A DNA stretch of 64,000 nucleotides from Chloroflexota bacterium (GTDB taxonomy: Bacteria; Chloroflexota; Limnocylindria; P2-11E; CF-107): contig VBHP01000031.1 of assembly GCA_005881435.1 (NCBI GenBank), forward strand, positions 15,242 to 79,241, written 5' to 3'. Below are positions 30,017 through 56,957 of this stretch, one piece after another. The notes under the pieces are model-generated. The model saw only the letters and a program-made list of their open reading frames with translations, made no database searches and had not been told where the DNA came from. Positions within the stretch are counted from its first letter, which is position 1. Each line of letters begins with the position of its first letter. Both the position numbers and the translations under genes were made by a program.

Positions 30017-31057
30017 ATGATCAGAGCCGAAGCACACGGCCGCGTGAACCTCATGGGCGAGCACACCGACTACAACCTCGGGCTCGTGCTGCCGACGCCG
30101 ATCCCGCAGCGCACCGTCGTGCAGCTCGAACCGCGCGCCGACGACACAATCCGGATCCGCGCTCGCGGCTTCGGGGAGGTCTCCTACCGCCTCGGCGCCG
30201 AAAAGCCGGCGCACGACTGGTCCGACTACGCGAAGGCCTGCACCGCAACGCTCCAGAGCTCCGGCGTCGGATTGCGTGGGTTCGACGCCGAGGTCACCAG
30301 CGACGTACCGGTGGGCGCGGGTGTGTCCTCTAGCGCGGCGTTCCTCGTCGCGCTGTTGCGTGCGATCCGCGACGCCTTCGCCCTGCAGTTCGACGACACC
30401 ACCTTGGCCTTGCTCGCGCAGCGCGCGGAGGTCGAGTTCGTCGGCGCGCGGGTCGGGATCATGGATCAGCTCGCGGCCAGTCGCGGTCACCTCGGCGAAG
30501 CGTTGCTCATCGACACCGCCGACCTCTCCGTCGACCGCGTCGAGCTGCCCCTGTCGATCGCGCTCGTGGTGATCGATTCCGGAGTGCGACACGCGCACGC
30601 CGGCGGCGGCTACAACACCAGACGCGCCGAGTGCGAGGAGGCGGCGCGCGCGCTCGGCCTACCGTCACTGCGGAACGTGCGCGACCTCGACGCGCTGGAG
30701 CGGCTCCCACCACTGCTTGCGCGTCGTGTCCGGCACGTCGTCAGCGAGAACGAGCGCGTGCAGGAAGCCGCGGCTGCGCTGTCCGGCGGGGACGTCGGTC
30801 GCCTGGGCCAGCTCTTCGACGCCTCGCACGCCTCGCAGCGCGACGACTTCGACGTCTCCATCCCTGAGGTGGACGCGCTCGCCGCTGCGCTCCGTCACGC
30901 CGGCGCGCTGGGTGCGCGCCTCACCGGCGGCGGTTTTGGCGGTTCCGTCGTGGCCGTCGCCGCTTTGGGGACGGAGCGGGAGGTCGCGAAGGCGGCGCGC
31001 CTCGCATACGAGCGACAGAGCGGTCGTAAGGCCTCGGTCATCCTGCCGCCGCCATGA
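30017..31057 (+). CDS. galK: Galactokinase
   Basis: GHMP kinase with RVNLMGEHTDYN galactokinase signature and PVGAGVSSSAA. Confidence 0.85.
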   Translation: MIRAEAHGRVNLMGEHTDYNLGLVLPTPIPQRTVVQLEPRADDTIRIRARGFGEVSYRLGAEKPAHDWSDYAKACTATLQSSGVGLRGFDAEVTSDVPVGAGVSSSAAFLVALLRAIRDAFALQFDDTTLALLAQRAEVEFVGARVGIMDQLAASRGHLGEALLIDTADLSVDRVELPLSIALVVIDSGVRHAHAGGGYNTRRAECEEAARALGLPSLRNVRDLDALERLPPLLARRVRHVVSENERVQEAAAALSGGDVGRLGQLFDASHASQRDDFDVSIPEVDALAAALRHAGALGARLTGGGFGGSVVAVAALGTEREVAKAARLAYERQSGRKASVILPPP

Positions 31058-31090: not shown

Positions 31091-31909
31091 ATGCCTCGCT
31101 CGATCTGGAAAGGTGTCATCAGCTTCGGTCTGGTGGCCATTCCGATCCGCGTGTATCTCGCCACCGAGAGCAAGTCCATCCACTTCCGCCTGCTCTGCCC
31201 GAAACACAAAGAACCGATCAAGATGCGCCGCTGGTGCGTCGAGGGCGAGCACGAAGTCGCATGGAACGAGGCGCTCCGCGGTTTCGAGATCTCAAAGGGA
31301 CGCTACGTGATCCTCGACGAGAAAGACCTGGAGAAGATCCCGCTGCCGACGACCAAGGCGATCGAGATCTCGCGCTTCGTCACCGAAGAGGAAGTGCAGG
31401 GCGAGCTGTACTTCCAGAGCGCCTACTACCTCGAGCCCGAGAAGGCCGCCGCCAAGCCGTACGCGCTGCTGCGCAAGGCGCTCGATGAATCGAAGCGCCT
31501 GGCCATCGCGAAAGTCGCGTTCCGCGATCGCGAGCACCTCTGCGCGCTGCGACCGGTGGACGAGGTGCTCCTGATGAACACGCTGTACTGGCCCGACGAG
31601 ATCCGCTCCTATCAGGACCTGGACCTTCCGGAGCGCGTGACCGTCAACGCGCGAGAGCTGCAGATGGCGAAGAGCCTCATCGACGCCATGACCGCCGAGT
31701 TCGATCCGTCCGAATTCAAGGATGAGTACCGCGAGGCGCTGCTCGAGCTGATCAAGGCCAAACAGAAGGGCAAGGAAGAGATCGTCGAGGTCGAAGAGCC
31801 AGAGCCGACGGCCGTCGCGGATCTCATGGACGCGCTGAAACGCTCGGTCGAGGCCACCAAGAAGGGCGAGCGCGCGCGAAAGGCCGGCCGCAAGCCGCGC
31901 GCGGCATAG
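31091..31909 (+). CDS. ku: Ku protein (non-homologous end-joining DNA-end-binding protein)
   Basis: MPRSIWKGVISFGLVAIPIRVY Ku core; lysine-rich C-terminal tail; slightly lower GC than the surroundings. Confidence 0.85.
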   Translation: MPRSIWKGVISFGLVAIPIRVYLATESKSIHFRLLCPKHKEPIKMRRWCVEGEHEVAWNEALRGFEISKGRYVILDEKDLEKIPLPTTKAIEISRFVTEEEVQGELYFQSAYYLEPEKAAAKPYALLRKALDESKRLAIAKVAFRDREHLCALRPVDEVLLMNTLYWPDEIRSYQDLDLPERVTVNARELQMAKSLIDAMTAEFDPSEFKDEYREALLELIKAKQKGKEEIVEVEEPEPTAVADLMDALKRSVEATKKGERARKAGRKPRAA

Positions 31910-31924
31910 CGCGCGGACCGCACC

Positions 31925-32822
31925 TCAGCTCGCCAGCGACAGGCGCATCTGCTCCGGTCCACGTTCGGGCTCGCCGCGGGGGTCGTCGCCGAAGCGATAC
32001 CGCAGCTTGAGCCGCTCGATGCGTCGATCGATATCAGCTGCGTAGCGGGGATCGGCATGCTGTCCTCTGGTATAGAGCGCGCGCTGGCTCTCCAGCAGGG
32101 CCGGGAACTCCGCGAGCAGGAAGGCGAAGTAGTAGTCCTTGACGTGCGGGTCGAGCTTCAGCAGCCGGGGATGCAGAAAGCACGCGTCGTTCGCCGCGGC
32201 GGCGAGGATCACGGCTTCGAGGGACTCTTCGGAGTCAGACAGGCCGGGCAGGATCGGCGCGACCAGTACGCCGGCGCTGACGCCGGCCTGGCGCAGCCGG
32301 CGCAGGCCCTCGAGTCGCTTCGCCGGCGGCGGCGCCAGCGGCTCGACGCGGCGCGCGAGATCAGGGTCAACGCTGCCGATGCTGAAGTAGACGCGGACCG
32401 ACGTCCGCGCCGCGAGGCGAGCGAGCAGGTCCGCGTCGCGGACGATCATCGCGGACTTGGTGACGATCGAGAGCGGCATGGGATGCTCGACCAACGCTTC
32501 GAGTGACTTCCTGGTCAATCGATACCGCCCCTCCGCGGCCTGGTACGGATCCGTCGCCGTCCCGAGCGCGATGCTGCCGCTGCGTTTCGGGCCCGACAGC
32601 TCGGCGCGCAGCACCTCCGCGAAGTTGAGCTTGACCTCGATCTGGCTGTCGAAACCGCGTCCGAGGTCGCGCCGCATCTTGGCGTGGTACTCGCGCGCGT
32701 AGCAGTAGGTGCAGCCGGCGGTGCAGCCCCGGTACGGATTGAGGCTCCAGTCGAACGGCATCCCCTGGACCCGCGTCATCGCGGTCTTGCACGTGATCGG
32801 CGTGTAACTCGCGAAAGCCATC
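31925..32822 (-). CDS. Radical-SAM protein, Rv2578c/SplB-like DNA-repair photolyase family
   Basis: CxxxCxxC as CTAGCTYCY near the N-terminus; ATG 32822 preceded by GGGGAG; the long upstream extension is rejected. Confidence 0.7.
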
Positions 32823-32849
32823 CGCGCTCCCCACGAACCGGTTATCGAC

Positions 32850-32868
32850 ACTATAGAACATTTGTTCT
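32850..32868. promoter_or_regulatory. LexA (Cheo/SOS) box aGAACatttGTTCt abutting a TATAGT -10 element on the minus strand
   Basis: Palindrome GAAC-N4-GTTC at 32856-32867, matching the Gram-positive/actinobacterial LexA consensus; minus-strand TATAGT at 32855..32850, about 31 nt upstream of the radical-SAM ATG. Confidence 0.5.
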
Positions 32869-32933
32869 CAATGCGGCGTGGCACCCCTAGTGCAGCCCCG
32901 GCGCAATCAACACCTGCGCGTGGAGGGAATGTC

Positions 32934-33758
32934 ATGCCTGCTACGCCGATCACCGACTGGGGCACGGCCTTCATGACCTCGATGGCCGCGGCGCTCGCGC
33001 TCCTGCTCGGTGGTATCCCCAAGCTCATCGCCTTCGCGCTCATCCTCATCGTCGGCTGGATCATCGCCAGCATCGTCGGCGGCGCCGTCAGCCGGCTGCT
33101 GCAGACGATCCAATTCGAACGGTTCGCCGAACGCTCCGGCCTGCGTGGGTTTGTGCGCCAGATGGGCGTGCAACTCGGCGCGTCCCAGCTCGTCGGCGAG
33201 CTGGCGAAATGGCTGATCCGCGTCGTCACGCTCGTCGTCGCCTTTGACGCGCTCGGCCTTCCGGCGGTGTCCCAAGCCCTGCAGAGCCTGCTGCTGTGGC
33301 TGCCGAACCTCGTTGTCGCGATCGTCGTGCTCGTGCTCGGCGGTCTCGCGGCGACAGCACTCTCGCGCCTGGTGCGAGGCGCGACTGCGGAGGCCGGCTT
33401 CAGCAATCCCGGTCTTCTGGCCACGATCACCAGCGTCGCGGTCTTGGCCTTTGCGGTCCTGATCGCGGTGAACCAGATCGGCGTGGCTGCGAACATCGTG
33501 AACATCCTCTTCACTGGCATCGTCGCGGCAGCCGCGTTAGCCTTCGGCCTCGCGTTCGGGCTTGGCGGCCGTGACGTCGCCAACGGCATCCTGACCAGTT
33601 GGTATCAGGGCGGCGCGAACGTCGGAGCTCGTACGAACCGCGTCGTCGCCGCCGCGCGCGAGCAGGCTGCGGCCACCGAGCCCGGCGCCACACGCCGCAT
33701 GACCGAGCCTGCGGAGAACGGCGATCTCGTCCCACCCGCGGAGCGCACGCGCCGCTAA
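32934..33758 (+). CDS. Membrane protein with conserved TM-helix repeats (MscS-associated 'TM helix' repeat-like)
   Basis: GGAGGG Shine-Dalgarno 7 nt upstream of the ATG; repeated amphipathic TM modules; Gly/Ala-rich. Confidence 0.5.
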   Translation: MPATPITDWGTAFMTSMAAALALLLGGIPKLIAFALILIVGWIIASIVGGAVSRLLQTIQFERFAERSGLRGFVRQMGVQLGASQLVGELAKWLIRVVTLVVAFDALGLPAVSQALQSLLLWLPNLVVAIVVLVLGGLAATALSRLVRGATAEAGFSNPGLLATITSVAVLAFAVLIAVNQIGVAANIVNILFTGIVAAAALAFGLAFGLGGRDVANGILTSWYQGGANVGARTNRVVAAAREQAAATEPGATRRMTEPAENGDLVPPAERTRR

Positions 33759-34540: not shown

Positions 34541-34655
34541 AAAGCCCTCCTCGCGATAGATGCAGGCAGCAAATGCAGCCGCTGTGCCAGTGGCACCTTT
34601 GAAGAAGGGCTCGCTTCGGTGAGGATCGGTCAGGCGTGCGGAGGTCGCGGGTGAG

Positions 34656-54825: not shown

Positions 54826-56739
54826 CTATCTGGCCATCTTGAATACGTCACGTTGGAGCGCGACGCCGGTGTTCATCCGGATGATCTCAGCCAGCGTGTG
54901 CTGGTAGGTGATGCCGTACCGCTGCGCGATCGCCGGCAGGGCGGAGTCGTTCCGATAGAAGAACCGGTCGCCGGCTCGGAGAGCCTCGAATTGCCGCTTC
55001 CAGATCGCGAGCTGCAGCTCTCCGAATTCGGTTCCCACCACGTGGCGCTCCGAGATCATGCCGACAAACGCATCGAGCTTACCGACGTCGCCGTAGACGG
55101 CCTTCAGCCGCGCCGCGAGCGTCGTGCGTCGAACCCCGACCACGGCATCCTCCTCAGCCGCCGGGTCATCGAGTGCGATCACCGCCCCGTTCGCGTCGCG
55201 TAGCTCCACGAAGTCGAGGATGTTCGGATCATCGATCGGATCGAAACGATCGATCTGCCGGTCGTGTGGGAAGACTTGGGTCCGCTCACCGGTGATCGCA
55301 GCGAAGGTGTGCTTCGGCGCCAAACCGTAGGCCCGCCTCAGCTCGTTGTACGAGGGCATGCCGTGATCTCGTCCGCGCTGGATGTCGATCGCGCCAAGAT
55401 CGCTGACGCCACTGAAGCAGTCCGGATTCACCACCGGCTGGCCGCACACGGTCGGATCAGCGATCCCGGGCTTAGGGACCTGGAACAGGACGCTCCGCAG
55501 CGTGTTGTCGATCTGCTCGTCGTTCTTGTATTGGCGCTCGGAGGCGAGGCTCCGGAGGACCGCACCAAGACCGAGCTGGCGGACAAGATCCGGGTTGCCG
55601 AAAGCGACGTTCAACGGGATCACGAGGGTCACGTCGCTTGCGGTTCGTTCGATGCCGATGCCCTGGGCGGCAAAGGCCGCGAGGCGCGCTTCGGAATATC
55701 GGCCTGGCGCGGACGTCACGTCGAACTCGCCGTGGATCATGCTGTGCGCCCGATAGCCCACGACGGCGAACTCGTTAGACAGCCCCGCATTCACGGTCGG
55801 GTCGTAGCCGGAGTAGCTGTTGAGCCGAACGCCGAGCGCCGGCAGGAACTGCGTAAACGTCACGTATTGGATCTCGGCGCCGACCACGCGGCGCGCGATC
55901 TCGAACTTTTCCTCGTCGCTGAGAGAGGACGGCAGCGCGGCCACGATGCGGTTGTGCTCACGAGCGAACAAGGTATGAACAGCCGTGAGCGCGATGTTCT
56001 CGTTCGCGCGCACGTCGCCCGCCACGATCGCGCGCCCGGGCGTCGCGAGGAGTGCACCCATGAGGTCCATCGCCGGGGCGGCCGCGGCGTCCCCGCGCGC
56101 GTTGACGCGGGGCAGGAAGCCGTCGGCCAGAAGCAGTCGCGCCCCATTGTCCGCGAGGTTGCCATCGATCGGGCCCTCGCGCAGCCACTCCAGCCGCGCG
56201 GCGCTGACGCCGTAGACGCCGGAGCCATCGATATAGCTGCTGATCGTGTTCAGCTGTTGCCGCGGCGAAGTCTGGCCCGTGCCGGGGGCCGCGGGCGTGC
56301 GGAAAAAAGCGATAGAGCCGAGGTCGTCGCGGAACGCCTCGAGCGCGTCGTTGGGATCGAACGCGATGGCGGCGTTCTCCGCGGCGGTCTCGACGCGCAG
56401 ACCGAAGTCATGATCCAGGAACTGTCCCCACGTCCAGGCCCACTGCGTGAGGCCGTTCTCGGAAAAAAGATTCTGACCGACGTCGTTGAAGACCCGATTG
56501 CTCACGTACCGCGCGGCGGGTCCACCGACCATCGCGCTCGTGCCGTCCGCGTACCGCGGCACAGCGACCCGCAGGTACTGCGTGTTCGCGCTTCCCCATT
56601 GCGGATTGCGGAGGTTGTTACCAGTGCCGTCGAGCGTGCGACCCGTGAGGACAGCCGCAGCGGGCGTCGCCGGCAGCGCCATGAGCAGCACGGTCGACAG
56701 GAACACCAAGACAGTCGTAGACAGCCGGATCTTGCGCAC
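54826..56739 (-). CDS. Secreted haem peroxidase of the peroxidase-cyclooxygenase ('animal haem peroxidase') superfamily
   Basis: Signal peptide; WGQFLDHD distal-His motif; RANENIALTAVHTLFAREHNR proximal-His region. Confidence 0.75.
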   Translation of the reverse strand: MRKIRLSTTVLVFLSTVLLMALPATPAAAVLTGRTLDGTGNNLRNPQWGSANTQYLRVAVPRYADGTSAMVGGPAARYVSNRVFNDVGQNLFSENGLTQWAWTWGQFLDHDFGLRVETAAENAAIAFDPNDALEAFRDDLGSIAFFRTPAAPGTGQTSPRQQLNTISSYIDGSGVYGVSAARLEWLREGPIDGNLADNGARLLLADGFLPRVNARGDAAAAPAMDLMGALLATPGRAIVAGDVRANENIALTAVHTLFAREHNRIVAALPSSLSDEEKFEIARRVVGAEIQYVTFTQFLPALGVRLNSYSGYDPTVNAGLSNEFAVVGYRAHSMIHGEFDVTSAPGRYSEARLAAFAAQGIGIERTASDVTLVIPLNVAFGNPDLVRQLGLGAVLRSLASERQYKNDEQIDNTLRSVLFQVPKPGIADPTVCGQPVVNPDCFSGVSDLGAIDIQRGRDHGMPSYNELRRAYGLAPKHTFAAITGERTQVFPHDRQIDRFDPIDDPNILDFVELRDANGAVIALDDPAAEEDAVVGVRRTTLAARLKAVYGDVGKLDAFVGMISERHVVGTEFGELQLAIWKRQFEALRAGDRFFYRNDSALPAIAQRYGITYQHTLAEIIRMNTGVALQRDVFKMAR

Positions 56740-56957
56740 CGGAGCGCCTCCCCTGGCGACGGCCGACGGCCTTTCCGTCCCACCACCTCGCGCGCGCTAC
56801 GTGCCGGCGGCACCAGCGCCCCTGCCCCATTCAGACCCGGTGATCGCTCGCCACTGCATCAACGCCCCCGCGCGAAAGAGGCGTTACGAGCGTGCCGATA
56901 GGAAAGTCGTTCGACTGAAACGAATCGTGGGCGTAGGCAAGCGTGTCGAAAAACGGG

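Follow-up and report, generated by a model that had tools for sequence, protein, structure and literature searches.

A LexA-type operator very probably abuts the -10 element of an SplB-like radical-SAM gene in a probable member of the Dormibacterota

LexA, the repressor of the SOS response, recognizes the motif GAAC-N4-GTTC in Firmicutes and Actinobacteria, and variants of this motif occur in Chloroflexi. In Mycobacterium tuberculosis, LexA ChIP-seq yielded a peak at Rv2578c/Rv2579, where induction is RecA-dependent (Smollett, 2012; PMC3381160), and the SOS-box promoter of Rv2578c/Rv2579 was assigned to the LexA regulon by Davis (2002), according to the passage of PMC4951493 that refers to this work. 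LexA regulation of splB/COG1533 genes has been described in Actinobacteria, in Alpha-, Beta- and Gammaproteobacteria and in Verrucomicrobia, in the last case by EMSA (PMC4951493), as well as in Bacteroidetes (PMC8565304). [quoted passage not shown] The locus described here resembles these systems in its central feature: as in M. tuberculosis, a gene of the same broad radical-SAM family lies behind a GAAC-N4-GTTC site in a divergent intergenic region, and as in the splB cases of the two comparative studies (PMC4951493; PMC8565304), a putative LexA operator is placed on a stand-alone radical-SAM gene of the COG1533 group. It differs from Rv2578c in that the encoded protein is shorter, lacking the first ~40 profile positions and scoring 268 bits vs. 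430, and in that the divergently oriented gene encodes an Msc-like membrane protein, in the place of dhaA. Moreover, LexA binding in vivo and RecA-dependent induction are established in M. tuberculosis, whereas the present locus is known from its sequence alone. Neither Dormibacterota nor the loci of Chloroflexota, Gaiellales and Thermoleophilia included in the present survey appear in these comparative studies.

The stretch of DNA that was analysed (64 kb, referred to as the window) contains, apart from the locus itself, ordinary chromosomal genes, such as a pyr operon, coaBC, coaX, coaD, glycosidases and transporters. Its best protein matches are labelled Candidatus Dormibacterota, which is evidence at the level of labels. 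The features of the locus are listed in Table 1. For comparison, 80 homologous loci were listed from species-representative genomes, all of them relatives with at most 56% identity, and 34 further loci were obtained by looking up exact protein matches and by scanning metagenomes. The latter comprise 28 more distant loci and six close relatives, in which the radical-SAM protein is 99% (L085), 86% (L081, L086) or 78% (L082-L084) identical to that of the window. Counts of operator-like boxes cover those 110 loci whose upstream sequence was long enough, 78 of which are genome loci.

Table 1. Coordinates of genes and putative regulatory elements at the radical-SAM locus, in positions of the window.
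Feature	Position	Strand	Basis or remark
Galactokinase gene galK	30017-31057	+	galactokinase HMMs; 33-bp gap to Ku, same strand
Bacterial Ku gene, 272 aa	31091-31909	+	TIGR02772, 301.2 bits, cut-off 150, full-length profile
Radical-SAM gene, 298 aa, SplB-like (COG1533; Rv2578c/PA0069 relatives)	31925-32821	-	
Divergent intergenic region, 112 bp	32822-32933		59.8% GC vs. 68.7% in the window
Shine-Dalgarno sequence GGGGAG (putative)	32827-32832	-	5 nt before ATG (32821)
-10 hexamer TATAGT (putative)	32850-32855	-	abuts the operator directly
LexA/SOS-type operator GAAC-N4-GTTC (putative)	32856-32867	strand-neutral	only exact match within 64 kb
Sigma-54-type -24/-12 promoter-like site TGGCACCCCTAGTGCA, TGGCAC-N5-GTGCA	32879-32894	+	
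Membrane protein gene with MscS-type conserved TM-helix repeats (Msc-like)	32934-33758	+	PF05552
Second sigma-54-like site	34574-34589	-	before a 203-aa membrane ORF

The product of the radical-SAM gene belongs to the radical SAM superfamily, with a PF04055 score of 57.7 bits (cut-off 29.5) and a CxxxCxxC motif at C33, C37 and C40 that is invariant among 24 homologs. Its start is backed by homologs of the same length, 298 aa, that align with 100% coverage. The best NCBIfam match is NF038135, the Rv2578c family, at 267.7 bits and over profile positions 41-315 of 317, followed by NF033668, the PA0069 family, at 211.9 bits; both scores fall below the respective cut-offs of 430 and 360. The protein is thus a relative of the Rv2578c and PA0069 families, but a curated member of neither. 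A literature search for PA0069 together with radical SAM returned no paper. In JGI annotations, the homologs carry the label "DNA repair photolyase", which is the name of COG1533. The exact protein sequence had no match in the assembly index.

An AF2 model of the protein (pLDDT 80.7, pTM 0.82) finds its best PDB matches in spore photoproduct lyase (SPL; 4FHC/4FHG, TM 0.66, E 1e-7). All of the top six fold matches are SPL structures (TMq 0.64-0.66), while no other radical-SAM enzyme exceeds 0.51. The likeness to SplB of Bacillus/Geobacillus (4FHC) extends over 296 columns of the predicted fold and includes the CxxxCxxC motif and a weakly shared block of sequence: in a profile search of the PDB, SPL was the sole sequence relative, at E 0.014 and over an alignment of 60 residues, and phmmer of the protein against PDB sequences gave no match. 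In contrast to this similarity in fold, the two proteins share 17% identity, and the SPL equivalog model TIGR04070 scores 20.5 bits (E 1.9e-4), far below its cut-off of 400. The protein is therefore not an SPL, but SPL-like at the level of the fold, and to this extent the label "SPL-like" of the preliminary description is borne out. To our knowledge, the organism is not known as a spore former. Fold and family suggest a radical-SAM lyase of DNA lesions, an enzyme that presumably reverses a DNA lesion via a 5'-deoxyadenosyl radical.

The promoter region of the gene is compact. Written on the plus strand, the GAAC-N4-GTTC box is GAACATTTGTTC, and its minus-strand sequence is GAACAAATGTTC; it is enclosed in the 14-bp palindrome AGAACATTTGTTCT at 32855-32868. 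In the direction of the radical-SAM gene, the spacer reads ...GAGAACAAATGTTCTATAGTGTCGATAACCGGTTCGTGGGGAGCGCGGATG, with box, TATAGT, GGGGAG and ATG in that order. Both the palindrome lying flush against TATAGT and its setting in an AT-richer divergent region, as noted in the preliminary description, could be confirmed from the sequence; that description had also located the -10 element upstream of the radical-SAM start, correctly, but at about 31 nt, while the distance from the -10 element to the ATG is 28 nt. The GGGGAG sequence is also found in L081 and L082. The inverted-repeat finder overlooked the 5-bp arms of the palindrome. A scan for consensus promoters and terminators between 30900 and 33900 returned the -10 hexamer, but no -35/-10 pair and no intrinsic terminator; with no -35 element recognised, the promoter is called from the -10 element and its conservation. 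The element as a whole is an inverted repeat with an AT-rich spacer, it abuts a core promoter element, and it leaves a footprint upstream of orthologous genes.

This footprint is broad. Among the matches listed, 64 of the 110 loci have an exact GAAC-N4-GTTC box in the 250 nt that precede the radical-SAM gene, and about 25 more carry a box with one mismatch in the same place, at -23 to -36. The exact boxes come from three phyla, namely Chloroflexota, Dormibacterota and Actinomycetota, and are found within the same distance in 46 of the 78 genome loci listed. All 24 Actinomycetota loci among the matches listed (Gaiellaceae, Thermoleophilia and others) have the exact box. The five Dormibacterota genome loci listed divide into two with the exact box and three with one mismatch (CGAACAAATGTTTG). 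Chloroflexota are mixed, with several Dehalococcoidia lacking any box; the roughly 20 of 110 loci without a box are mostly Dehalococcoidia and untyped metagenome contigs. Altogether, the 822,768 bp of the loci contain 75 exact boxes, about 64 of which lie upstream of the radical-SAM gene, corresponding to a roughly 200-fold enrichment. In 57 distinct contexts, the hexamer immediately downstream of the box has the consensus T (.75), A (.79), T (.77), N, N, T (.77), whereas no such TATnnT-like signal is seen at the mirror-image positions on its upstream side. The one-sidedness of this signal implies a promoter -10 element fused to the operator, rather than an extension of the palindrome. In the alignment of the close relatives (99%, 86% and 78%), box and -10 element are invariant, while the surrounding spacer has diverged and changed in length. 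The conservation of the box tracks the radical-SAM gene, not the divergent Msc-like neighbour.

Based on these comparisons, the palindrome can with high probability be regarded as an SOS operator of the LexA type that abuts the -10 element of the radical-SAM gene, and its type is the GAAC-N4-GTTC kind of Firmicutes, Actinobacteria and Chloroflexi. A chance palindrome without regulatory role in an AT-richer spacer would be the simplest alternative, and the statistics of the window leave some room for it: for the 8-base core, 0.78 matches are expected per window and one was found, and 50 of 100 shuffles contained at least one. Taken alone, a bare GAAC-N4-GTTC match is not significant and proves nothing. 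The 14-bp version is expected only 0.02 times per window, for an extension to 14 bp that was chosen post hoc. The real support for the operator thus comes from its conservation in relatives and not from window statistics; the recurrence of the box with an adjoining TATnnT in three phyla, and its invariance between diverged flanks, refute a chance origin, the probability of which is practically negligible. Across the window, boxes with one mismatch are about as frequent as expected by chance (23 compared to 22), which gives no ground for proposing a second SOS site. A single site in the window gives no outline of a regulon, and binding of the conserved operator by a different regulator in place of LexA, e.g., another HTH repressor, is conceivable and would put the gene outside the SOS response in this lineage. 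However, the motif is the experimentally defined LexA motif of neighbouring phyla, LexA occupies the homologous promoter of M. tuberculosis in vivo, and the radical-SAM family is LexA-controlled even in phyla with a different LexA motif, which implies that the regulatory link follows LexA and not a particular sequence. A different regulator is therefore unlikely. LexA as the binding protein is suggested by the identity of the motif; tblastn searches with LexA of E. coli and B. subtilis and RecA of E. coli, which are approximate queries, gave nothing credible for lexA or recA in the window and in loci L001-L084. Overall, a GAAC-N4-GTTC SOS operator on the -10 element of the promoter of an SplB-like radical-SAM gene is the best explanation and a likely one, and the LexA-type operator proposed in the preliminary description is backed by conservation in three phyla and by the published regulation of the family.

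If the SOS operator functions as in the homologs described in the literature, a LexA dimer on the box would occlude the -10 element in undamaged cells, and RecA-stimulated self-cleavage of LexA upon DNA damage would free the promoter. Derepression would then produce an mRNA with a short leader of ~22 nt, with GGGGAG serving as the Shine-Dalgarno sequence. The putative SOS unit would consist of the operator, the promoter and the radical-SAM gene, and nothing else: Ku would belong to the transcription unit on the galK side, and the divergent membrane protein gene to its own sigma-54-like promoter.

For Ku, the closest described arrangements are the Ku-LigD operons of bacterial non-homologous end joining (NHEJ), e.g., Rv0937c-Rv0938 in M. 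tuberculosis and ykoVU in B. subtilis, in which an ATP-dependent ligase or LigD gene lies beside ku. As in these operons, the window encodes a bona fide bacterial Ku, which also matches PF02735 (148.5 bits) and has a basic C-terminal tail. Unlike in these operons, Ku follows galK, its other neighbour is the radical-SAM gene, and its presence varies among close relatives. The preliminary description had noted the lack of an adjacent LigD, and indeed a domain scan found no LigD, ligase or primase-polymerase next to Ku or elsewhere among ~55 ORFs of the 64 kb, a set chosen by GC3 from which a small gene may be missing. Apart from Ku and the radical-SAM gene, no other repair genes were found among the ~55 ORFs scanned.

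It had further been proposed that Ku joins the radical-SAM gene in a single repair module, inducible by DNA damage and perhaps gained by horizontal transfer, through which the SOS response would reach Ku and NHEJ. Several observations are in line with this proposal: the two genes are only 15 bp apart, the same arrangement is present in the 78% relatives (L082-L084) and the 99% copy (L085), the GC content of Ku is lower than that of the window (63% vs. 69%), and ImuB-C proteins have been linked to Ku-ligase on the one hand and to SplB-like genes on the other (PMC3765255). However, the two genes are convergent, tail to tail, which precludes a shared promoter, so that the operator cannot drive Ku, and the motif scan of the window found no box before Ku or galK. 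Neither the 80 genome loci listed (searched within 4 kb of the radical-SAM gene) nor the 28 more distant metagenome loci have Ku beside the radical-SAM gene. The order galK-Ku-radical-SAM gene is restricted to the window, L085 and L082-L084, while in L081 and L086 (86%) and in the P0008 contig (66%) galK lies directly beside the radical-SAM gene and Ku is absent. Thus, galK adjoins the radical-SAM side with or without Ku and is the conserved neighbour in close relatives. In L081, the 95-bp spacer between galK and the radical-SAM gene still keeps the last eleven Ku codons in frame (ARKAGRKSRVA* compared to ARKAGRKPRAA* in the window; 29 of 36 bases identical). This remnant of the Ku 3' end indicates that Ku was ancestral in this lineage and was then deleted, with operator, radical-SAM gene and galK left in place; among the 86% relatives, both L081 and L086 have lost Ku and kept the other three elements.

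The suspicion of foreign origin does not hold either. A lower GC content had been ascribed to the whole Ku-radical-SAM segment, which is true for Ku (63.1% vs. 68.7% in the window), but not for the radical-SAM gene, which at 68.3% equals the window. Moreover, the GC3 of Ku is 0.87, the same as in galK, the radical-SAM gene and the Msc-like gene, and the deficit resides in codon positions 1 and 2 (0.65 and 0.38), as results from a Lys/Glu-rich protein. A foreign origin of Ku, as suggested by its lower GC content, was therefore rejected, and the 86% identity between Ku of the window and of L082 fits vertical descent. Considering this evidence together, a common repair module is very improbable, and the comparison of loci instead portrays Ku as an ancestral but dispensable neighbour in one sub-clade of Dormibacterota. 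A different connection between the genes is conceivable, since the tail-to-tail ends are so close and no terminator was detected: SOS-induced transcription of the radical-SAM gene could read through into antisense Ku. If true, this would lower NHEJ while the SOS response is on, creating a reciprocal switch specific to the Dormibacterota sub-clade, but such read-through is considered a long shot.

On the other side of the operator, the pairing of the Msc-like gene with the radical-SAM gene is confined, among the loci compared, to the close relatives L081-L086. From the sigma-54-like site in the divergent spacer, the distance is 40 nt to the Msc-like gene downstream and 11 nt to the operator; the site forms a conserved island in the alignment of the close relatives. 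Two sites of this kind were found in the window compared to 0.06 expected, and both recur with unchanged positions in each of the six close relatives, while they are absent in the other 108 loci. The conservation of the site suggests that the divergent Msc-like gene has a promoter of its own, and the gene is probably outside the SOS unit.

LexA sites on the promoters of SplB-like radical-SAM genes have been described before, in other phyla, and the locus reveals no new system. LexA control of COG1533 genes is published, while our literature search returned no paper on LexA in Dormibacterota, so that the locus represents a known link in a new lineage: the connection between LexA and SplB-like COG1533 genes would be extended to an uncultured soil phylum, probably Dormibacterota. 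The unit of operator and -10 element is preserved near base-for-base across Chloroflexota, Dormibacterota and deep Actinomycetota, and such deep conservation lends support to the view, already published, that the gene has long been among the core members of the SOS response. In these three groups, the box may also serve as an anchor site for defining the LexA regulon.

Gene callers repeatedly place the start of the SplB-like radical-SAM gene at an ATG lying within the predicted LexA operator itself, as in the homologous proteins P0001, P0011 and P0014; in the window, this ATG and the radical-SAM gene are in different reading frames. The N-terminal extensions of these three proteins are false. 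In many actinomycetotal and chloroflexotal loci (homologous loci L021, L025, L041, L046, L048, L051, L057, L065 and others), only 21-24 nt separate the start of the box from the extrapolated first codon. With the TATnnT element there finishing a few bases short of where coding begins, these short-spacing loci suggest leaderless radical-SAM mRNAs; the window gene, by contrast, has a leader of ~22 nt with a Shine-Dalgarno sequence.

One lineage (L093, L094 and L109, at 48-55% radical-SAM identity) has its GAAC-N4-GTTC-TAT box at a distance of 1268 nt upstream of the radical-SAM gene, and the gap is filled by a large serine recombinase of ~420 aa (Resolvase, Recombinase and Zn_ribbon_recom domains), whose gene abuts the radical-SAM start. 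This arrangement looks like either an SOS-box-driven recombinase-radical-SAM operon or the insertion of a mobile element.

Coordinates of the features discussed (window positions unless a locus is named)
Feature	Position	Strand	Remarks
ATG inside operator	32859-32861	-	ATGTTCTAT, read as 'MFY...'
Sigma-54-type -24/-12 promoter-like site	32879-32894	+	TGGCAC-N5-NTGCA; 40 nt upstream of Msc-like gene
Sigma-54-type -24/-12 promoter-like site	34574-34589	-	TGGCAC-N5-NTGCA; 34 nt upstream of 203-aa ORF
Msc-like membrane-protein gene	32934-33758	+	
203-aa membrane-protein ORF	34540-33929	-	
26-aa hydrophobic ORF	33913-33836		next after 203-aa ORF
656-aa ORF	54829-56796	-	animal haem peroxidase family PF03098, 348 bits
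Ku 3' remnant	L081 6878-6913		same spacer in L086; matches window 31873-31908
Trypsin-like S1 protease gene (PF13365)	L004 4937-5860		also L093 and L094 (divergent from box there)
Stretches with the recombinase arrangement	L093 1984-4136; L094 858-2890; L109 411-2158		

The Msc-like gene and the 203-aa ORF are convergent, each behind one sigma-54-type site; the pattern matches twice in the window, against 0.06 matches expected, and both sites are kept at equivalent places only in the close relatives L081-L086. Two of these, L081 and L086, lack Ku; in them the spacer that separates galK from the radical-SAM gene still carries the last eleven Ku codons with the stop, in frame, a trace left by recent deletion of Ku. 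Elsewhere in the window, the ORF with the strong haem peroxidase match is flanked by pyrimidine-biosynthesis genes.

In some Chloroflexota-type loci, the radical-SAM gene is adjoined by the S1 protease gene, which stands directly behind a GAAC-N4-GTTC-TAT box, either its own or shared. The protease gene is a possible further member of the SOS regulon.
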